In this document: positions 4,981 to 41,398 of the stretch, one piece after another
Layout: the number at the start of each line of letters is the position of its first letter
Position numbering within the stretch: the first letter of the stretch is position 1
Virus record (IMG/VR): IMGVR_UViG_2663762841_000006
Coordinates: 1-42,406 of that record
Length of the DNA: 42,406 bases
From: a virus
Lineage: Duplodnaviria > Heunggongvirae > Uroviricota > Caudoviricetes
Strand: one strand, 5' to 3'
The notes under the pieces: generated by a model
What the model saw: only the letters and a program-made list of their open reading frames with translations
What the model was told of the DNA's origin: nothing
The model's database searches: none
Made by a program: the position numbers and the translations under genes

Positions 4981-5454
4981 CTAGAACGGAATATCCGAAT
5001 CGTCGAAGTTCATAGGTGGTTCGCTGTGATTCCCCTGCTGCTGAGATTGCTGTCTTTGTTGCTGACCGTTATTTCGCTGATGTGAAGACTGTTCATTGCC
5101 TCCTTGTTTGCCACCAAGCATTTGCATGGTTCCACCAACGCCCACGATGACTTCGGTAGTGAACCGATCCTGTCCACTTTGATCCTGCCATTTTCTTGTC
5201 CGCAATTTGCCTTCAAGATAAACCTCAGAGCCTTTTCGCAGATATTCGCTGGCAATTTCTGCCAGTTTCCCGCTCATTACCACGCGGTGCCACTCCGTCT
5301 GCTCCTTTTGCTCTCCAGTTTGCTTATCACGCCATTGTTCTGACGTAGCAACTGTAAGGTTTGCAAATGCCGTTCCTGATGGTGAATATCTGATTTCTGG
5401 ATCATGCCCAAGGCGACCAATAATGATCACCTTATTTACGCCTCTGCTTGCCAT
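4981..5454 (-). CDS. ssb: single-stranded DNA-binding protein
   Basis: 157 aa; OB-fold N-terminus ([15 protein letters not shown]...), Gly/Gln-rich linker, acidic DDSDIPF C-terminal tail. Confidence 0.9.
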
Positions 5455-6162
5455 TTATGCCGCCTGTTTTAGTTCGTTAACTCTGATGTTCATTACCTGA
5501 ACGCATTTAGCCTGCGCATCCTCATTGCCAGCCATTAATTGCCAGTCATGCTGATAACGCTCGATGAGTTTTTTCTTGTCAGTTTCTTTCGATGCAAAAT
5601 CGCTGAAGTCTTTCAGGATTTGTTCGTAGTCAACCGATGGAGATTTCTGGTTGGTATTTTCTGGTGATGGTTTGTTATCTGATGCTGGGATTGCCCATCC
5701 CGGCAGCGATGGAGGGAGCCAGTAAAATCCTGTTCCATCCTTGAGTTTTGCCCTGTGCCATCCCTGCTTTTTATCGAGAGATGTTTGTGCAAAACCTTCC
5801 TCAAGGTTATACAGATACCGACCGATTCCCCACTGAACGGCAGCGCGCTTCATTGCACCGGAACGACCGCCTTTGACGGCTTCTACCTGCGTGTTTTCAG
5901 CAGCATCCCATTTGGTTACCCATTCGGAATCAATCTTGATTGATATGCCGCATTCAACTCCGCCGTTGTTGGGAATATCGCGGTATTCATTGCGCCATCC
6001 TGCTTTGCCGCAAACATCGTCCAGGCGCTTCATGATTGCCCGGTTCGTGACATAAGCCAGCACCATAGCCCACACCTTGCCATCGCGTGTTTTACCGCTT
6101 TGCTGTATTCGCCATTCGATATCTTCAGGGCTGAATGGCTCATCGAATTTGTTCAAATCCAT
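5455..6162 (-). CDS. single-strand annealing recombinase (Rad52/Sak-like family, inferred)
   Basis: 235 aa directly upstream of ssb in the recombination module; family recalled from memory, not verified by profile search. Confidence 0.5.
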   Translation of the reverse strand: MDLNKFDEPFSPEDIEWRIQQSGKTRDGKVWAMVLAYVTNRAIMKRLDDVCGKAGWRNEYRDIPNNGGVECGISIKIDSEWVTKWDAAENTQVEAVKGGRSGAMKRAAVQWGIGRYLYNLEEGFAQTSLDKKQGWHRAKLKDGTGFYWLPPSLPGWAIPASDNKPSPENTNQKSPSVDYEQILKDFSDFASKETDKKKLIERYQHDWQLMAGNEDAQAKCVQVMNIRVNELKQAA

Positions 6163-6261: not shown

Positions 6262-6420
6262 TTATGGCGATACCAGAGAGCTTTCTGCGTGTACATGCGT
6301 CTCTGTAACTTGCTCTCCTTCACTGTGGTTGCAAGTGACATGAATATCTCCTTCGTTACCGATTAATTCTTTCATCTGACGAATGAATTCTTCGTCTGAC
6401 CAGTTATCTGTAAAACTCAT
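6262..6420 (-). CDS. small hypothetical protein, 52 aa (below the ORF-track cutoff)
   Basis: Manual translation MSFTDNWSDEEFIRQMKELIGNEGDIH...; start overlaps the stop of the upstream Kil-like ORF (ATGA). Confidence 0.3.
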   Translation of the reverse strand: MSFTDNWSDEEFIRQMKELIGNEGDIHVTCNHSEGEQVTETHVHAESSLVSP

Positions 6421-6569
6421 TTCCTGCGATACCACGGAAGGTTGATAGCTGATTTCATAGCTTTATTTGCTTCAAGCCACATTTTTGAATCACCAATAAA
6501 TCTGGCTATTACTGCTTTGTTCTGTGCTGCACGAAGCATCTGGTGATTAATGGCTATTTCATTGCGCAT
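6417..6569 (-). CDS. Kil-like small protein (50 aa), putative host cell-division inhibitor
   Basis: Manual translation MRNEIAINHQMLRAAQNKAVIARFIGDSKMW...; IA(R/T)FIGD(S/E)KM(W/F) resembles lambda Kil as recalled; position between CIII-like gene and recombinase fits. Confidence 0.4.
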   Translation of the reverse strand: MRNEIAINHQMLRAAQNKAVIARFIGDSKMWLEANKAMKSAINLPWYRRK

Positions 6570-6688
6570 AACGCCTCCAGTTGTTTCTTTGCTGCTCTGA
6601 TTAATTGTTTAACTCGGCGTGATAATTCAGATTCGTGCGGGTAGAAAGCGGACATGACGCCGCTACCCGCGAGCTGAAAGTGCATCAT
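6554..6688 (-). CDS. CIII-like small protein (44 aa), putative FtsH inhibitor
   Basis: Manual translation MMHFQLAGSGVMSAFYPHESELSRRVKQLIRAAKKQLEAL; resembles lambda CIII central region (ESLLERITRKLR); AAGGAG RBS. Confidence 0.4.
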   Translation of the reverse strand: MMHFQLAGSGVMSAFYPHESELSRRVKQLIRAAKKQLEALCAMK

Positions 6689-6763: not shown

Positions 6764-7075
6764 TTAGGCGGCTGATGTTTCTTCTTTCAGGCTTTCGAGA
6801 TATTTACGTGGGTCGTCGTAACATTGGCATTCGCTGTACCAATCCACCCAGCGATCAGTAAGCCCCATCTCTGATAAATCTTCATCGGTAAGGCTCTCAT
6901 CCCACATCTCAAGGCCGTTAGCATTGCAGTAATCAGGCTTGATGTTGTTGTCATACTGAAAGGCGTCATAATCAGCCAGTGCGTCCATCAGGCGAACACC
7001 CTCTTCAACACTTGCCACTTCTGCAATGAACGGTTTCATAGGTACTTGCGGGATATGCCAGACACGTAATTTCAT
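6764..7075 (-). CDS. highly acidic 103-aa early protein, function unknown
   Basis: GGAGG RBS before ATG at 7075 (track start 7129 rejected); about 23 Asp/Glu versus 9 Lys/Arg. Confidence 0.5.
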   Translation of the reverse strand: MKLRVWHIPQVPMKPFIAEVASVEEGVRLMDALADYDAFQYDNNIKPDYCNANGLEMWDESLTDEDLSEMGLTDRWVDWYSECQCYDDPRKYLESLKEETSAA

Positions 7076-7176
7076 ATTTCCTCCGTCAAAAAAATTGCCC
7101 TCACACTGGAGGGCAAAGAAGATTTCCAATAATCAGAACAAGTCGGCTCCTGTTTAGTTACGAGCGACATTGCTCC

Positions 7177-7204
7177 GTGTATTCACTCGTTGGAATGAAT
7201 ACAC
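7177..7204 (-). promoter_or_regulatory. perfect 9-bp inverted repeat (gtgtattca/tgaatacac) with 10-nt loop, no U-run
   Basis: Seen directly; lies just downstream of the 156-aa gene on the PL transcript; possible rho-dependent or N-sensitive terminator, processing site or protein-binding site. Confidence 0.3.
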
Positions 7205-7218
7205 AGTGCTTACTCGTA

Positions 7219-7689
7219 CTAATAAAATACCCAATTTTCTGTTTCTTGGTTGTGCCCAAAGTTATATTCAATATCTGGTGTTGATGTATCAATATTCTTC
7301 ATCCCATCAACAAGAGTTGATACAACAGCCAAATCTTGTTTGATTCTCATTAAATGGTATTTCTTCCGGCGCAATAAACTTTCAATGGCAAGTTTCTTCG
7401 TTGGGAATGCAAAAGATCTTTCTGCATTTTTTGCTACTTTCTTAATTGCATATCTATTTCTCCTTTGTTTCCATTCCTGTAACCACTGATTTGGTGCTGG
7501 TTTAAAATTAACAATCCAATGCGCAGGAACCAACCATGCATAATGCTCTGTCTGATGAAAAGCTATATATTGAAGTGCGAATATTTTTATCCCATCTTCT
7601 TCAACTGTCGCCTGGAATCTCCAGAAAACAGGCATTCCATCATGTTCAGTTTCTGATTCAGGAAAAGGTACGCTCCATGATTTTGTCAT
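7219..7689 (-). CDS. AT-rich moron protein, 156 aa, unknown function, immediately downstream of N
   Basis: GAGGTGA RBS; coding sequence is visibly AT-rich (A/T-ending codons throughout) relative to neighbours; basic region KQRRNRYAIKKVAK...LLRRKKYHLMRIK. Confidence 0.55.
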   Translation of the reverse strand: MTKSWSVPFPESETEHDGMPVFWRFQATVEEDGIKIFALQYIAFHQTEHYAWLVPAHWIVNFKPAPNQWLQEWKQRRNRYAIKKVAKNAERSFAFPTKKLAIESLLRRKKYHLMRIKQDLAVVSTLVDGMKNIDTSTPDIEYNFGHNQETENWVFY

Positions 7690-7697
7690 ATCTCACC

Positions 7698-7997
7698 TCA
7701 AATAAGTGGTTTGCTGCCTAATTTCATTTTCTGGCGACCAACACAAGTCACACCCATTTCACTGCGTGGCTTGCGGTAGTAAATACGGTTCTGTTTACGC
7801 TCGACTTCATCTGCCTTCTTGCAGCGAAGGCTTACGAGTGATGCTGCTTTGTCTGCTCTGACGCAACCAGAGAGCTTTAGCGCAATCTTTCGCGCCAGTC
7901 GCTGTTCTTGCATTGCCTGTTCACGTTGAGCCTGTCTGCGTGCTCTGCGGCGATTTCTGGCGTTATCGTCAGCCAGATATGTAATGACTACTGTCAT
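7698..7997 (-). CDS. N-like transcription antitermination protein
   Basis: 99 aa; arginine-rich motif NARNRRRARRQAQREQ near N-terminus; GGAGG RBS; first gene downstream of PL/nutL. Confidence 0.6.
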   Translation of the reverse strand: MTVVITYLADDNARNRRRARRQAQREQAMQEQRLARKIALKLSGCVRADKAASLVSLRCKKADEVERKQNRIYYRKPRSEMGVTCVGRQKMKLGSKPLI

Positions 7998-8192
7998 GTT
8001 GACCTCCGATGATTGACTTTGGTGATTGGATGGCCGGTGCTGAATTCCGGCTTACTGGTTAGAGCGCCCGCACTACCAGTGACGCTGTCTTGAGGCGCAG
8101 ATTGGTTACTGCTTGCCATGAGCGCTGTTTATACATTGGTCGAGCATCAGCCTGCTCATTCATCCAATCCCAAAGCCAACTACTCTTTGGTT

Positions 8193-8232
8193 CCCGCATT
8201 TCGGCGGGACAATCCCATCAATGTTAAAGAGC
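8193..8232 (-). promoter_or_regulatory. nutL (boxA ggctctttaa; boxB cccgccgaaatgcggg)
   Basis: boxA close to CGCTCTTTA consensus; boxB hairpin identical to the one at 9350..9365 (nutR) in the opposite orientation. Confidence 0.6.
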
Positions 8233-8278: not shown

Positions 8279-8308
8279 AATTTAAGATCTCTTTAATTAA
8301 TGGTCAAG
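8279..8308 (-). promoter_or_regulatory. PL promoter (-35 TTGACC, -10 TAAATT/TTAAAT) with TTAAG-containing operator-like palindromes
   Basis: Read on minus strand; 17-18 bp spacing; sits between cI terminator and nutL. Confidence 0.45.
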
Positions 8309-8374: not shown

Positions 8375-8398
8375 TAAAAAAAAAGGGGCGAATGCCCC
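8375..8398 (-). terminator. rho-independent terminator downstream of repressor gene
   Basis: Hairpin ggggc-gaat-gcccc followed on minus strand by a long U-run (plus-strand A10). Confidence 0.7.
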
Positions 8399-8399
8399 C

Positions 8400-9050
8400 T
8401 TATGGAAGGTTTGCTAGTTTTGCATCGACAACTACGCCGATGATTTTGCAGTTTCCGTTGATCTCGATCATCGGATATTGTGGGTTAAGTGGTTTTAGAA
8501 ACTTCCTGCCTGCATCAATAACTAACTTCTTGAAAGTTGCCTCGTTTTCTCCTTCGAGCTTTGCAACTACCAGTTTCCCGTTACGCGGCTCTACTTCAGG
8601 ATCGACGAGTATTATCATTCCTTCAGGGATACTGAGACCGGCCGGAGCCGTCATTGAGTCTCCCTTCACGTCCAACCAAAACGAATCTTCTGAACAGTCT
8701 ACGGTTGTATCGTACCAGTTATCTATTGCACGCTTATGATATGGTTCTACAGCTTCCATCCAGCATCCTGCGCTCACCCAGCTAATCAGAGGGTATGACC
8801 CTCTTGGATCATGCCTACTGTGATAGGCAATGTTTGAAAGACTTTCCTCTCCTTTCATCAGATAGTCAGGGGAACACTTCAACGCATTAGCCAGGGCGAG
8901 AAGATTCTCTCCATTTGGCTCTGTCTCAGAGCGTTCCCACTGAGATATGGCAACATTAGACACGCCGACCATCTTTCCAAGTGCGGCCTGCCTGATCTTG
9001 AGTTCTTTTCTCCGAGCGCGAATGCGCTCTCCCATCAATTGAGTTTTCAT
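8400..9050 (-). CDS. c2: CI/C2-type prophage repressor (HTH + LexA-like S24 peptidase domain), P22 C2-like
   Basis: 216 aa; N-terminal HTH (QAALGKMVGVSNVAISQWER), C-terminal autocleavage domain (AG, GDSM, K motif); appears near-identical to the P22 C2 sequence as I recall it. Confidence 0.9.
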   Translation of the reverse strand: MKTQLMGERIRARRKELKIRQAALGKMVGVSNVAISQWERSETEPNGENLLALANALKCSPDYLMKGEESLSNIAYHSRHDPRGSYPLISWVSAGCWMEAVEPYHKRAIDNWYDTTVDCSEDSFWLDVKGDSMTAPAGLSIPEGMIILVDPEVEPRNGKLVVAKLEGENEATFKKLVIDAGRKFLKPLNPQYPMIEINGNCKIIGVVVDAKLANLP

Positions 9051-9737: not shown

Positions 9738-9899
9738 ATGACAAAACGTCGTAAGAAATACCAGGAAAAAGAAGAGATTCGACACCCTGATTCACCTGAG
9801 GGATTAGTGGTAGCCGCAGCAAATAACAGGGCGTTCGCAGAGCGCCTTGTTGGTGTTTACAGACTAGCCAAAGCAGGAGTGAAACATGGGCGTCGTTAA
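9738..9899 (+). CDS. small basic hypothetical protein, 53 aa
   Basis: Manual translation MTKRRKKYQEKEEIRHPDSPEGLVVAAANNRAFAERLVGVYRLAKAGVKHGRR; CAGGAG RBS. Confidence 0.35.
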   Translation: MTKRRKKYQEKEEIRHPDSPEGLVVAAANNRAFAERLVGVYRLAKAGVKHGRR

Positions 9900-9948
9900 G
9901 TTAGCTGATTACAGGCATAACCCTGTACAACATCAGGAGGCATCCAGT

Positions 9949-10776
9949 ATGGGGTATGTCTCTATACACCGCCAGTTTATGGACAGCAGGCTCTATAAGG
10001 ACTCTCAGGCAGTACATCTTTGGCTTCACTTAATCCTCAAGGCTAATCACGAATCTACTGTCGTCAATACGGATATCGGTCCGATAACTGTTGATCGCGG
10101 TCAGATGATAACTGGACGCCCGTCGCTGGTCAGAGAAACATTCATTCCCGACAACAAAGTTCGGAGCTTATTACGGACTTTTGAGTCGAAAGGGATGCTT
10201 AATATTTGCTCGATGGGGAAGAAATTTAGCCTGTTTACAATCGTTAAATATGACGATTTTCAGGCAAAAAATTGTCCAACGGTTGTCCAACGGTTGTCCA
10301 ACGCAAACACCAGTAATGGCGCGGCTCTCAGTGGAGATTGTCCAACGGTTGTCCAACGGTTGTCCATAAACAATAATATAAATAATATCTCTAATACTGA
10401 CGTATTAGAGAGTGCCACAGCAGACAAAAAGTCTGACAAGAAAAAACCTTCCGTTAGCTGTCAGGATGTTGTCGATGCTTACCACGAAATCCTTCCTGAA
10501 GCGCCAAGAATCCGCGCACTGAATGACAAGCGTAAAAACCAGATCCGAACGTTCTGGCGCAAAGCCGGAGTGATAACCCGCCAGCTTGACGGACATGGGT
10601 TCACGATGCAGGACTGGAGAAATTATTTGAGCTACGTAGGCGAAAATTGTCGATGGATGTTCGAAGAGCGTCCAAACCATCAACGTGGAACTGTCTGGCA
10701 CAAAAAGGGATTTGATTTCCTGCTTAACGATAATACCTACCTGAAAGTTCGTGAGGGTGAACACGATGACCGATAA
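9949..10776 (+). CDS. replication initiator (lambda O / P22 gene 18 analog) containing the origin iterons
   Basis: AGGAGG RBS before ATG 9949; six 11-bp iterons inside the gene; immediately followed by the helicase gene. Confidence 0.65.
   Translation: MGYVSIHRQFMDSRLYKDSQAVHLWLHLILKANHESTVVNTDIGPITVDRGQMITGRPSLVRETFIPDNKVRSLLRTFESKGMLNICSMGKKFSLFTIVKYDDFQAKNCPTVVQRLSNANTSNGAALSGDCPTVVQRLSINNNINNISNTDVLESATADKKSDKKKPSVSCQDVVDAYHEILPEAPRIRALNDKRKNQIRTFWRKAGVITRQLDGHGFTMQDWRNYLSYVGENCRWMFEERPNHQRGTVWHKKGFDFLLNDNTYLKVREGEHDDR
10272..10400. repeat. replication origin: six iterons TTGTCCAACGG (10272..10304 and 10338..10370) followed by an AT-rich stretch (10368..10400)
   Basis: Exact tandem repeats seen directly; in-frame, encoding the repeated peptide CPTVVQRLS. 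Confidence 0.75.
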
Positions 10777-17339: not shown

Positions 17340-17414
17340 GGGTCAGTCGTATAAAGGTCATTACGGAAGGCTGTTAACCTTCTTATCGTGGTTCGAGTCC
17401 ACGCTGCCCCTCCA
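17340..17414 (+). tRNA. tRNA with GUU anticodon (Asn-type), 75 nt, one U4-C69 mismatch in acceptor stem
   Basis: Manual cloverleaf fold: acceptor gggtcag/ctgcccc, anticodon stem gaagg/ccttc, loop cuGUUaa, T-arm cgtgg-ttcgagt-ccacg, encoded CCA. Confidence 0.6.
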
Positions 17415-17419
17415 AATAT

Positions 17420-17495
17420 GCTGGTTTAGCTCCAATGGTAGAGCAGTCGCCTTGTAAGCGAATGGGTAGCGGTTCAAGTCCGTTAACCAGCACCA
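17420..17495 (+). tRNA. tRNA with UGU anticodon (Thr-type), 76 nt
   Basis: Manual fold: acceptor gctggtt/aaccagc perfect, D-stem gctc/gagc, anticodon loop cuUGUaa, T-arm agcgg-ttcaagt-ccgtt, encoded CCA. Confidence 0.65.
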
Positions 17496-35688: not shown

Positions 35689-35862
35689 ATGATAGTCAAG
35701 TCAGACGCACCAAAGTACCCTTTGCGCATCCCATTAGAGGTTAAGTTAGCAATCGAGAAGTCAGCGAAAGAAAATGGTCGCTCAATAAATACCGAGATGG
35801 TAATGCGGTTAGTGGATAGTTTAAGGCGGGATAGTTCTAAAGGTAATCTAGCAAAAAGTTGA
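35689..35862 (+). CDS. arc: Arc-like ribbon-helix-helix repressor
   Basis: 57 aa from ATG with GGAGG RBS; [18 protein letters not shown] resembles P22 Arc (ENGRSVNSEIYQRVMESF). Confidence 0.7.
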
Positions 35863-35924
35863 AGCCCCAACTGCGGGAACAGTCAGGGCTTCGGTATCAA
35901 CAAATCGGATTAGGAAATATTGAC

Positions 35925-36913: not shown

Positions 36914-37408
36914 TTATCTAAAACAAGCAAACTCGCCATGATATTTTTCCCTGAATGCAATAGACATTAATTCGGCCAGCTCAATATCATCGGTATACCC
37001 AAGGCAAATAGACTTACCTTTTAGTTTGAACATAACTTTATATGTGTTTTTCCCTTTAAGAAGATGAACTCCTTTTATACCTGTATTGGATGATGAAACG
37101 CTGTTGGTTTTATTCTGACCTCTGGTTACTTCTCTTAGGTTTGAAATTCTATTGTCATTTTTAACCCCGTTAATATGGTCAATTAACCCTTTAGGCCAGC
37201 ATCCTTTCATATAAAACCAAGCAAGTCGGTGGCAAAGATATGATTTCCCATTAATCCGTATTGATAAGTAGTCGGCCTGTGAGTTCGTCTTAAATCCAGC
37301 AACCTTTCCGATACTGGAGCTACCAGAAGCTATCTTCCAAGTGAAGACGCCTGTTTCTGGGTTGTAGTTGAGTGAAGAGGTTAATTCTTTATGAGTAATC
37401 ATATTCAT
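36914..37408 (-). CDS. HNH homing-endonuclease-like protein (HNH_3 type)
   Basis: 164 aa; HRLAWFY...IDHINGVKNDNRISNLREVTRGQN motif; AT-rich; antisense to the flanking late genes. Confidence 0.65.
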   Translation of the reverse strand: MNMITHKELTSSLNYNPETGVFTWKIASGSSSIGKVAGFKTNSQADYLSIRINGKSYLCHRLAWFYMKGCWPKGLIDHINGVKNDNRISNLREVTRGQNKTNSVSSSNTGIKGVHLLKGKNTYKVMFKLKGKSICLGYTDDIELAELMSIAFREKYHGEFACFR

Positions 37409-37428
37409 TCCTTAAATAGAGATTCACT

Positions 37429-39876
37429 ATGTCAAATATTGTGCCAAATGTTATAATTTCAATGCCAAGTCAACTATTTACGTTAGCCAGAAAATTCCAG
37501 GCAGCAAGCAATGGCAAGATATTCATTGGTAAGATAGATTCCGATCCCACGCTCCCACAGAATCAAGTGCAGGTTTATGTGGAGAACGAAGACGGCTCTC
37601 ACATTCCCGTTTCGCAACCAATAATTATTAACGCTGCTGGCTACCCTGTATATAACGGACAGATTGCCAAATTCGTAACCGTGCAAGGGCATTCTATGGC
37701 TGTGTACGATGCATATGGATCACAGCAGTTCTATTTCCCTAATGTGCTGAAGTACGATCCAGATCAGTTTTCATATTTGCTGAAAAGTGATGATGGCTAT
37801 AAGTATATAGGAGAATGCAAAGATATATCTACATTGAGAACAATTGAACCAAGTTATGATGGACAGGTTATAAGACTGAGGGGATATTACTCTGACAGCT
37901 ATTCAGGAGGTGGAAGGTTTTTCCGTAGTGTTAATCCTGATGGATTGACAGATAACGGAGGAACGATAATTTTCACATCAGAAGGAAATGTATGGAAATC
38001 AGATGATATATATAATGTTATGCTTGAGGATTTCGGAGCTAAAGATGGTGCTGACAACACCGAAGCATTTCATAAAGCAATTAACTCACCAGCAAAAAAA
38101 ATCACAACAAATATAAAAGAGTTGATACTAACAAACAATATTGTAATTACACGCGGCGACCTGGCAATTGATATGCCTGATACGGAGATAATATGGAATG
38201 CTCCGGAAGGACATATTCCTGATAGAAGTGGATCTACAAATCCAAGTAACTATCGTTTTCCTGGCATTCTAGCATTTCGCGGCACTGCTGGAGATATAAT
38301 AGACTCTTTTACTCTAACAAATAGAATATCAAAAGGAGATACAACATATTGGTGTACGAACAACTCTCTTTTTGAGAATAGACAGTGGGTTATTATGTCA
38401 TCGGATGTTGGCGGCGGAACCGTAGGTAGAGAAATAAATGTAATGACACAAGTGCAGGGCAGTGGTGGAGCAATAACTCAATTGCGAGTTGATTATAAAA
38501 CAGGCTGGCATCTTGATGTCGGAAGGGTATTGACATATAGAAATGTAACCCCAATAGAAAATGTAAGAATTGCTTTTAAAGGCGTAAAATGGAATCAAAA
38601 CATAACAGATGCTTCAGGTGGTGGCGATGGATTTGCCAGTCAACAATCATGCGCACTTGTGTCCCTTGAATACGTAAATAACGCTGACATTTGTCTCGGG
38701 TATGGATTTAATCACCCTTACCCAATGGTTGTAACTGCCATGGTCAGGAATGTTTTTGTTCATGATACGGAAACAAATTTCCCAAGAGTTCCAGGGTCCG
38801 ATCATGTTGTTCAATTCAATAACGCATATGAATGCCACGCAAGAAGATTACGCAATATTTCAGGCAGGCACGTAGTTGATTTTAGTGGTTCAAGTTATTG
38901 CTCTGTAAGAGATTGCGGAGAAACAGGAACAAGAAATGGTGCATTTACTACGCACGGTATGTTTGAGCACAATTTGCGATTTGATAATAATTATGGTCTT
39001 TTAAGCATTGCAAACAGTGGTGAATATTATGGTGAGTCAGCAGATAATATAACTGTAACCCATCATTTCGGAGATTATTTAATTGCAACTTCAAAAGTTA
39101 CCAACCTTAACATATTGCATGCAATATTTACAAAAGGTGCAAGATTAAACAATGATGCCGTCACATTGATTGATGTTACTATTGGAGAAAACTCAACTGA
39201 TGCCGATAGAGGGCTTAGATTTACCCAAAGCTCTAATGTTTATGGGCGTGGGGCAAAAATATTCGGCTGTGACATTGTGTTAAACAAGCAAGCAGGGAAT
39301 GCTCTGCCTGATTCTCTTAACCAAAGGGTGAAAATCGAATCGACATATATCAGGAATTCAAACGCTTCATATTATGGTGGTAGTTGGATTGAACTAATTA
39401 ATTGTGATGTTTCAGGATCAGGTTCAAGTCTTGAGAATGTTGTTGCTGCAACGCGGTTTAGCATGCTGTCCGGATCACTATCTAATACTGGTTTTATTTT
39501 TCAAGGCCCATCAGAGCAAATCGTAAAAATACATGACGTTTCACAGTCTGGAACAGGAGCGTCAGGGCTTAATAGTCATTTTACTTTAAATAAAGATGAG
39601 GCAGGAAGTGGACCAATAACAATGTCATATAAAAATAATCAATGTATATTGAGTGGAGAAACATGCGCATTCAAAATAAATAATGCTTCAGGAGCATTCA
39701 GAGTAAACTCTACAGGGAATACGTTTCAAGGTGGGAAAATAGAGTTTCAGAAATCTATTACATCAGGTGGCAGTTACTTAAATCACACTGGAAACGTAGA
39801 GCGTGGCGTTAGTAGAGTCAACGAGCCAGAAAATACTCCATATATAGTAACAACAGGGAATATGATAATTCCCTGA
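37429..39876 (+). CDS. tailspike protein: conserved P22-type head-binding N-terminal domain fused to a divergent receptor-binding domain
   Basis: 815 aa; first ~115 residues match the P22/Sf6/HK620 tailspike N-terminus as recalled; remainder Gly/Ser/Asn-rich, consistent with a beta-helix. Confidence 0.85.
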
Positions 39877-40004: not shown

Positions 40005-41198
40005 TTAATCAACCTTCCCATCAAGCCAGTCTGCCCACCACTGCATCATTTCTCTGCGTTTGTCGAGATACTGAGCATGGTTGTAAATTCCACGCACAGA
40101 ACCGCCGTTGGCATGTGCCAGTTGCACTTCAATAGCATCAGCGGGCCATTCGTGCTCGTTCATAATCGTGCTGAATTCATGCCTGAATCCGTGACCGCTT
40201 TCCAGACCCTCATAGCCGATTTGTTTGATCACAAGCAATACCGCGTTCTCGCAGATTGGCTTCTTCTTATCGTTGCGCCCGGCAAAAACAAACTCTGATA
40301 CTGGTTTGGTGATTGAGCTTAGCGTAGTGAGAAGTTCAACCACCTGGTCCGACATCGGGACCACATGAATTTTGCGGCCCTTCATCACACTGGCGTCGAT
40401 GGTGATAATCCTGTTTTCAAAATCGACGTTCTTCCATAGCATGGAACGAAGCTCTTTCGTTCTTAGGGCAGTGTAGCGTAAAACTTTGGTCGCAATGAGC
40501 GATACGATACTTCCTGAAAATGTTGCAAGTGCTTTGTTGAATGCCGGGATCTGGTCGGCAGGTAAAAACGGGAAGTTCTTCTTGCGGTATCCCTTCATGG
40601 CGTCAGCAAGGTCAGGTGCCGGGTTATATTTAGCCCTACCAGTGACAATAGCGTAACGGAAAACCTCGCCGCATCTTCTGCGGGCTTTGTTGGCTCGCTC
40701 CATTGCACCGCGATCTTCAAATCTGCGGATTACTTCCAGCAGTTGCATCGGCTCAATATCCTGAATTTCAAGGCCGCCGATGATAGGTAAAATGTCGTCA
40801 TCAAACATTTTTGCAAGTTCATTTGCATAGCCTACTGACCAGACTTGCTTCTTGTGCTCGTACCATTCCTTGTAAATGGCGCTAAAGGAATTGTTGTTAG
40901 ACGAAGCCTTTTTCGCTTTTACCGGATCGATGCCAACCGAGATGTCTTTCCTCGCGGTCCATGCTTTATCCCTTGCCTCCTGCAAAGTCATAAGCGGATA
41001 TTTTCCGACGGTCAGGATTTTCTCCTTACCGTCAATCTTGTAGCGAAGCTGCCATACCTTTTTCCCTGATACAGGGACATAAAGGTACAGGCCATTACCA
41101 TCGAGTAGGCGGTATGGTTTTTCTTTCGGCTTTGCTGCTTCAATCTGCTTAACGGTGAGCATGGGTAAAAATCCGGTGGGTAAAATTATTTTATCCAC
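40005..41198 (-). CDS. intS: tyrosine integrase, IntS (CPS-53/KpLE1)-like, P4-type
   Basis: 397 aa; C-terminal catalytic region (HGFRHEFST...HA...RGIYNHAQY); adjacent to argW; true start may be ATG at 41162 (MLTVKQIE). Confidence 0.85.
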   Translation of the reverse strand: MDKIILPTGFLPMLTVKQIEAAKPKEKPYRLLDGNGLYLYVPVSGKKVWQLRYKIDGKEKILTVGKYPLMTLQEARDKAWTARKDISVGIDPVKAKKASSNNNSFSAIYKEWYEHKKQVWSVGYANELAKMFDDDILPIIGGLEIQDIEPMQLLEVIRRFEDRGAMERANKARRRCGEVFRYAIVTGRAKYNPAPDLADAMKGYRKKNFPFLPADQIPAFNKALATFSGSIVSLIATKVLRYTALRTKELRSMLWKNVDFENRIITIDASVMKGRKIHVVPMSDQVVELLTTLSSITKPVSEFVFAGRNDKKKPICENAVLLVIKQIGYEGLESGHGFRHEFSTIMNEHEWPADAIEVQLAHANGGSVRGIYNHAQYLDKRREMMQWWADWLDGKVD

Positions 41199-41207
41199 TT
41201 TTTACCC
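41163..41207. repeat. three copies of the TTTTACCC arm-type repeat (two inverted at 41163..41170 and 41178..41185, one direct at 41200..41207)
   Basis: Same 8-mer as at 1385..1404; overlaps the int start region. Confidence 0.5.
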
Positions 41208-41323
41208 GTCATGGAGTGCGGCTGTCAACGATCTGACGCGAACCATGACGAACTGCGAATCTACGGAAGGCTTGATATTCATGGGATTTTGCGGACTGGT
41301 ACGGATGGGAGCGAACTGATAAA

Positions 41324-41398
41324 TGGTGTCCCCTGCAGGAATCGAACCTGCAATTAGCCCTTAGGAGGGGCTCGTTATATCCATTTAACTAAGAGGAC
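41324..41398 (-). tRNA. argW: tRNA-Arg (anticodon CCU), intact; 3' end forms the prophage att core
   Basis: 75-nt cloverleaf read from the reverse complement, ending GGGGACACCA; anticodon loop cuCCUaa. Confidence 0.9.

Follow-up and report, generated by a model that had tools for sequence, protein, structure and literature searches.

A mobile, AT-rich early-left accessory gene behind N of a P22-like phage, orthologous to HK97 gene 45 and 933W p19

Introduction

What is the role of the small, AT-rich gene that directly follows the N antiterminator gene in a P22-like phage, and does it serve the infecting phage or the lysogen? The gene, an ORF of 156 codons, lies at positions 7219..7689 on the minus strand of the window analyzed here, the complete 42,406-nt stretch of IMG/VR record IMGVR_UViG_2663762841_000006, which is the genome of a P22-like (Lederbergvirus-type) temperate phage. 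An original prediction, made from the sequence alone, described it as a moron that is transcribed early from pL, was acquired separately from its neighbors and might have an exclusion or anti-restriction function of the ral, sieB or rex kind. By definition, a moron has its own promoter and is expressed from the repressed prophage (Cumby 2012, PMC3594210). We examined the gene call, the anatomy and spread of the locus, its predicted transcription and the structure of the product, and then weighed the functions that these allow.

Results

The ORF is a catalogued gene under purifying selection

The ORF starts with an ATG at 7689 and ends with a TAG. The N gene ends with a TGA at 7700-7698, so the two genes are separated by exactly 8 nt, and a Shine-Dalgarno sequence, GAGGTGA (7693..7699, minus), lies 3 nt 5' of the ATG and overlaps the N stop codon. 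The predicted spacing and good ribosome-binding site were thus correct; the minus strand had gone unmentioned. Approximately 28 nt 5' of the ATG are conserved along with the gene in all lambdoid copies aligned.

The product matched phrog_1636 ('unknown function') over residues 1-156 of 156 (E 2.7e-112) and was identical over all 156 residues to 933W p19 (NP_049479; ST933Wp19) and 99.4% identical to HK97 Gp45 (AAF31125). In a tblastn search of GenBank phages, the protein was found at 99-100% identity in 79 records. The carriers include BP-4795, Min27 (ORF20), Stx2 phage 86 (orf57), many Stx1a/Stx2a-converting phages and the BASEL phages CurroJimenez_Bas106, Huey and Dewey, and the near-identical copies are always annotated 'hypothetical'. 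The gene, long catalogued in these model and pathogen phages as HK97 gene 45, 933W p19 and PHROG 1636, is therefore not new; the remark that its protein has no assignable motif still stood after the searches described below. At the DNA level, 597 of 5426 complete E. coli genomes (~11%) carry the ORF at ≥95% identity, with up to four copies per genome. Homologues at 55-85% identity were found in Salmonella, Cronobacter, Pectobacterium, Brenneria, Serratia, Rosenbergiella and Symbiopectobacterium. In comparisons with these, pN was 0.09-0.28 while synonymous sites had reached or neared saturation; where dN/dS could be measured, it was ~0.15-0.17. Low pN at saturated synonymous sites indicates that the reading frame is under purifying selection and that the ORF is a genuine gene rather than a chance ORF.

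The GC content of the ORF is 36.1% compared to 46.6% for the window, which places it at the 0.6th percentile among all 471-bp windows. It ranks last of the 45 plausible genes in the window in both GC (z –3.0) and GC3 (28%, z –2.7), which bears out the claim that it is more AT-rich than its flanks. Close homologues in other hosts likewise had GC contents 6-10 points below their own flanks. Comparable AT-richness elsewhere in the window was confined to the tailspike/HNH region near 37-40 kb. This second strongly AT-rich patch (36914-39876) consists of an HNH_3 endonuclease gene (36914-37408, minus; GC 37%) and the tailspike gene (37429-39876; GC3 28%), in which a conserved P22-type head-binding domain is followed by a divergent receptor-binding part.

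The gene is carried on a ~660-bp cassette with its own predicted terminator

A blastn comparison with two related phage loci revealed a sharp 662-bp block (window 7750-7089) that was 99% identical to one of the two, assigned by its coordinates as Stx2a_WGPS9, in which N is of the HK97/933W type. The block (7089..7750, minus) comprises a spacer with the Shine-Dalgarno sequence, the ORF, a hairpin and a terminator; it starts within the last ~17 codons of the window N gene and ends just 5' of the ribosome-binding site of the next gene, gene 17. The window N-like antiterminator (7698..7997, minus) is a 99-aa protein with an arginine-rich N-terminus (PHROG 271, E 1e-36; weak match to Pfam N_peptide, E 3.7e-4). 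It is 99% identical to N of phage Gally and 97% identical to N of CUS-3, and this CUS-3/Gally-type N has its C-terminal part in common with phage 21 N. Its last ~17 codons (7698-7750; …CVGRQKMKLGSKPLI*) match the non-coding spacer of 58 nt between N and gene 45 of HK97 and 933W base for base; in those two phages, an in-frame TGA terminates N at the junction equivalent to 7750, and both share the spacer upstream of gene 45 base for base. The alignment thus places the mosaic joint inside the 3' end of the window N gene. HK97 gene 45, 933W p19 and the ORF are the same gene in the same place behind N and followed by a terminator; in the window, however, the cassette follows a CUS-3/Gally-type N in a P22-like backbone, with an 8-nt gap instead of the 58-nt spacer.

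The 150-nt 3' UTR region of the ORF folded far better than shuffled controls (z = –4.4). It contains an RNA hairpin with a 14-bp stem and a 4-nt loop, without a U-tract (7175..7206, minus), that travels with the gene in 65 of 72 loci. Lying between the ORF stop and the terminator, this hairpin may serve as a site for RNase III or for a binding protein, or affect transcript stability. It is followed by an intrinsic-terminator-like hairpin, TTGCCCTC-cagtgt-GAGGGCAA plus T7 (7088..7116, stem 7116-7095, minus), a predicted analogue of tL1. A 'putative terminator' is annotated directly 3' of gene 45 in the HK97 record, and a terminator was predicted within 260 nt downstream of the gene in 54 of the 72 loci. 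In Bas106, the gene is separated from the hairpin/terminator by two small inserted ORFs. An Rfam search gave no match in the ORF/cassette region. The next gene encodes a gp17-type superinfection-exclusion protein (6764..7075, minus; ATG 7075, RBS GGAGGA; PF17420). A 121-aa version of this gene with a TTG start at 7129 (6764-7129) was rejected as an artefact: it runs through the terminator, and the PF17420 match begins at residue 19.

Among 80 IMG/VR loci, the identical protein was encoded downstream of at least 10 different upstream genes. The 127-aa HK97/933W-type N preceded it in 17 loci and the 99-aa N of the window in 12; in one locus the upstream gene begins with the lambda N arginine-rich motif (MDAQTRRRERRA), and many other types occurred besides. 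Conversely, phages with closely related N genes carry other genes in this slot: ral and a 140-aa ORF in CUS-3, and an 83-aa and a 149-aa ORF in Gally, which has essentially the same N allele as the window. Homology of the ORF to the 149-aa Gally and 140-aa CUS-3 occupants was rejected (hhalign probability <1%), as was homology to the Ea10-like neighbor in 933W (hhalign probability <1%). Taken together, these comparisons indicate that the ORF is one interchangeable occupant of a known variable slot behind N in many lambdoid backbones, and that a ~660-bp cassette of Shine-Dalgarno sequence, ORF, hairpin and intrinsic terminator recombines into this slot. The sharp 99% block and the exchange of upstream genes support the separate horizontal acquisition that had been proposed, and the presence of ral behind the 97% identical N of CUS-3 agrees with the proposal that anti-restriction functions reside at this position. 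Placement in the slot is not universal, since Pectobacterium and Brenneria prophages carry the homologue at the far end of the early-left operon, as the last gene before xis-int.

The gene is predicted to be immediate-early and silent in the prophage

On the minus strand, the early-left operon of the window runs from a pL-like promoter through N, the ORF, the gp17-type gene, cIII (6554-6688), kil (6417-6569), an arf-like gene (6262-6435), erf (5455-6162) and ssb (4981-5454). A consensus scan of this strand identified a single promoter-like site ahead of N and the ORF, the pL-like sigma-70 promoter (TTGACC-17-TAAATT; 8279..8307, minus). No promoter-like site was found between pL (8307-8279) and the ORF, relaxed consensus scan included, and no sigma-70-like promoter was predicted within 200 nt upstream of the gene in either the window or HK97, even at a relaxed threshold. 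Since the ORF has no predicted promoter of its own, it would be co-transcribed with N from pL, in line with the early expression from pL originally envisaged. It also precedes the first predicted terminator of the leftward operon, and would hence be part of the N-independent, immediate-early transcript, with the product made within minutes of infection or induction. Here, both the absence of promoters and the function of terminators are consensus predictions. Between pL and N (8020-8215, minus), two candidate nutL elements were picked by eye: a boxA-like CGCTCTAA followed by the hairpin GCCGG-aattcagca-CCGGC (~8068-8020), and a short hairpin, CCCGC-cgaaat-GCGGG (~8212-8197).

A strong predicted terminator (8382..8401, minus) lies directly 3' of the cI-like repressor gene (8400-9050). 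In a repressed prophage, this terminator would stop the pRM transcript before it reaches pL, N and the ORF. Because the cI transcript is predicted to end at its own terminator upstream of pL, we expect the ORF to be silent in the lysogen.

Early expression was again predicted in a different setting. Bas81 and two metagenomic contigs, the ~47-kb Bas81-like loci, carry a homologue of 62-85% identity as the first gene behind a near-consensus sigma-70 promoter (TTGACG-17-TATAGT) that lies ~41 nt upstream, which suggests very early expression there as well. An HTH_ParB/KorB-like gene was seen immediately after the homologue in two of these loci (L009 and L020) and two genes downstream in L019; a ParB-like gene is also found two genes downstream of a more distant homologue in Klebsiella phage VLCpiS10a. 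This adjacency may reflect a functional link or just a shared early module.

These results bear on the term moron. Like classical morons such as HK97 gene 15 (Juhala 2000; Cumby 2012, PMC3594210), the ORF is an extra, compositionally deviant gene with sharp mosaic boundaries, a terminator and horizontal spread: the extra DNA is present in only some close relatives, its GC content deviates (36.1% versus 46.6%), and it has its own predicted terminator. It differs in that no promoter for expression from the prophage is predicted in the window or in HK97, and in that it lies in the early-left rather than the late operon. The strict sense of the term therefore does not apply. The ORF is an uncharacterized, AT-rich and mobile early-left accessory gene of lambdoid phages, situated in the ral slot.

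The product is predicted to be a soluble protein with a fold lacking a solved counterpart

The ORF encodes an 18.6-kDa protein with a pI of 9.07 and zero cysteines. Residues 1-60 are acidic, residues 61-118 contain 17 K/R against 3 D/E (pI 11.4), and residues 119-156 are acidic and aromatic; the basic patch noted in the original prediction is present in the translation. No membrane segment was predicted (maximum Kyte-Doolittle 19-residue mean 0.56, GRAVY –0.59).

A profile search of 1.84 billion representatives returned only 87 proteins at E ≤ 1e-3, mostly of 130-155 aa. Apart from fragments and two repetitive false positives (P0066 and P0080), which were discarded, the distant homologues are standalone proteins. 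A second profile search yielded no domain fusions or informative names among them; all were standalone and 'hypothetical'. Their genes lie among early accessory genes, beside orphan DNA methylases and HNH genes. No significant match for the ORF protein was found in Pfam or NCBIfam, and none to the Ral/Lar families in Pfam, NCBIfam or PHROG. The only PADLOC-DB hit, Cas1_II at E 0.018 and 12 bits, is noise. Searches of PDB sequences gave nothing significant, with best E values of 0.13 for the single protein and 0.38 for a 63-sequence profile.

An AlphaFold run with 20 close homologues reached a pLDDT of 60 and was replaced by a run with the 63-sequence superfamily alignment, which gave a pLDDT of 96 and a pTM of 0.83. 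The model consists of strands 19-30, 33-46 and 50-55, two short helices, strand 83-86 and helix 98-130. We infer from it that the product is a soluble alpha/beta protein of a fold restricted to phages, in which a three-stranded sheet at the N-terminus is joined by a short fourth strand and a helix of 33 residues. Homologues of about 20% identity have the same fold, and their genes show no AT-richness compared with the flanking sequence. No fold counterpart to the model was found among PDB structures. In BFVD, the model matched 13 phage proteins at E ≤ 1e-3, all of them uncharacterized and some from non-lambdoid phages, many of which we take to be virulent; the matches include proteins of Erwinia phiEa2809, Achromobacter phiAxp-3, Delftia RG-2014 and phages of Tenacibaculum, Cellulophaga and Rhizobium. 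Tudor/KOW-like small beta-barrel plus helix proteins (PipX, the UvrD C-terminal domain, the CarD RID) are among the closest known systems.

The positions conserved in 53 distant members are an aromatic residue at 23, a basic residue at 24, G33, E46, T47, basic residues at 76, 83 and 84, K87, R91/92, F93, A94, F95, T97, A101, R108, K109 and F155. Basic and aromatic residues predominate among them, and none has the look of a catalytic residue. Only one acidic position is conserved, Glu 46 in the distant members, and it is Gln in the subfamily of the ORF; at the polar positions 112 and 115, which are conserved in part, the residue itself varies. Given the basic and aromatic conservation, the loss of the acidic position in the subfamily and the lack of cysteines, the protein is probably not an enzyme but a stoichiometric binder of nucleic acid, a host protein or an acidic protein surface.

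Discussion

The gene itself was already known from HK97, 933W, BP-4795 and many Stx1a/Stx2a phages. What the present analysis adds is the anatomy of the cassette, the case for an immediate-early, prophage-silent gene rather than a true moron, and a superfamily alignment that gives a high-confidence model of a fold without a solved counterpart, with conservation of a basic/aromatic and not a catalytic kind. Literature searches with phrog_1636, the accessions and HK97 gp45/gene 45 found no reported function for the gene, and no mention of HK97/933W gene 45 was found in the main text of two accessory-gene papers by Silas et al. The 'gp45' of an OLD preprint is a gene of phage HK578, and not HK97 gp45.

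Our best explanation, held at low confidence (a probability of roughly 0.4), is that the product is an early, phage-serving host-takeover or counter-defence factor that would act by stoichiometric binding. This guess draws on position, timing and distribution. The predicted immediate-early and prophage-silent expression, the ral slot and the interchangeability of its occupants were counted in its favor, as were the very broad horizontal distribution of a sequence that hardly varies in E. coli, the presence of relatives in early regions of non-lambdoid phages and the orphan DNA methylase neighbors of distant homologues. On these points, the infecting phage, not the lysogen, is the most likely beneficiary of the product. 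It would then be a functional analogue of ral, the occupant of the same slot in CUS-3. Like Ral of lambda, P22 and CUS-3, it is encoded by an early accessory gene of the pL operon that appears dispensable for the core program, directly downstream of N as in CUS-3; unlike Ral (~66 aa), it has 156 residues. Immediate-early counter-defence genes such as T7 0.3 (ocr) and early-promoter-driven acr genes offer an analogy, drawn on timing alone: they too are among the first genes transcribed and encode small, non-enzymatic proteins. In contrast to Ocr, the protein is basic overall (pI 9.1) and thus would not be a DNA mimic of that kind. Counted against this explanation were the lack of any sequence or fold similarity found to known anti-defence, defence or takeover proteins, and the far-end placement in the Pectobacterium and Brenneria prophages. 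The conserved basic face also counts against it, as it fits a DNA-binding regulator internal to the phage equally well.

The main alternative is such a regulator, a small and basic protein that would bind DNA or RNA and act on the program of the phage itself, not on host defences. It could take part in early transcription, serve as an accessory factor in replication or recombination, or modulate the lysis-lysogeny decision. The conserved basic positions lie on the strand-loop-helix segment within a central region of pI 11.4, the gene is always found in early DNA-metabolism and recombination surroundings (Erf/RecT, YqaJ, SSB), and ParB/KorB-like genes follow it closely in the Bas81-like loci. 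We nevertheless regard this role as doubtful. The gene is absent from the P22-like CUS-3 and Gally, which have the same N allele, and its slot is interchangeable with unrelated genes, which places it outside the core program. The identical protein stands behind many N alleles in Stx-phage, HK97 and P22-like backbones, and this argues against a phage-specific DNA target. If the product were a DNA-binding accessory regulator, it would be an ordinary addition to lambdoid biology.

A sharper form of the phage-serving explanation is that HK97 gp45/933W p19 is the founding member of a structurally novel, immediate-early counter-defence family, which would neutralize a specific E. coli immune system by binding either the system or its nucleic-acid trigger. 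The model showed no fold match to solved anti-defence proteins. We consider this role unlikely. If it were correct, the near-invariance of the protein in Stx1/Stx2 phages would help toxin-converting phages to establish in new hosts; a counter-defence factor of any kind would represent a new family with a bearing on how Shiga-toxin phages spread. The gene is nearly invariant across the Stx-converting phage records found and HK97 is genetically tractable, which makes it a worthwhile experimental target.

A true moron serving the lysogen, expressed at a low level from the prophage and excluding or aborting superinfecting phages in the manner of sieB or rex, or otherwise benefiting the host, would explain the AT-rich composition, the cassette-like mobility and the gene's own terminator. 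Its neighbor is a gp17-type exclusion gene, and E. coli prophages, Stx prophages among them, very often carry the gene in nearly unchanged form. We find this role quite improbable, because no promoter-like sequence lies within 200 nt upstream at relaxed thresholds, because the neighboring cI-type repressor controls pL, and because the cI transcript is predicted to end at a strong terminator of its own. SieB, RexB and HK97 gp15 are membrane proteins, whereas the ORF protein lacks a membrane segment. There was no PADLOC match, homologues stand behind early promoters in the Bas81-like loci, and fold relatives occur in phages far from the lambdoids. Of the functions originally suggested, sieB/rex-like exclusion is thus disfavored by the missing promoter, the predicted silence in the lysogen, the lack of a membrane segment and the relatives outside the lambdoids, while anti-restriction or another form of counter-defence stays plausible by position and timing. 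That the protein is secondary, and that selection acts on AT-rich DNA or a structured 3' UTR (for example for H-NS nucleation, or for the processing or stability of the N transcript), would fit the GC content of 36% and the conserved 14-bp hairpin and terminator that travel with the gene, but is hardly credible in view of the strong purifying selection at the amino acid level with synonymous sites saturated, and of a well-determined fold shared with ~20% identical homologues that lack the relative AT-richness.

Other features of the genome

The integrase gene (40005-41198, minus) comes directly after the tailspike gene and adjoins a complete tRNA-Arg(CCT), and sar RNA is located at 35857-35923. 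The early-left genes run toward the left end of the window while the integrase follows the tailspike; this layout (40005-41398) resembles a vegetative, circularly permuted map or an att-adjacent junction, and not the simple attL-int…tailspike-attR order of a prophage. Two phage-borne tRNA genes, Asn(GTT) and Thr(TGT), lie at 17340-17495 (plus), upstream of the lysis/late region. P22-like phages do not usually carry such a pair, which recalls the late regions of Stx phages. Two clusters of 11-bp-phased repeats (TTGTCCAACGG three times, twice, 66 bp apart) were seen at 10260-10377 (plus), inside a 296-aa replication-initiator-like ORF (9886-10776); these iteron-like repeats probably mark the replication origin.
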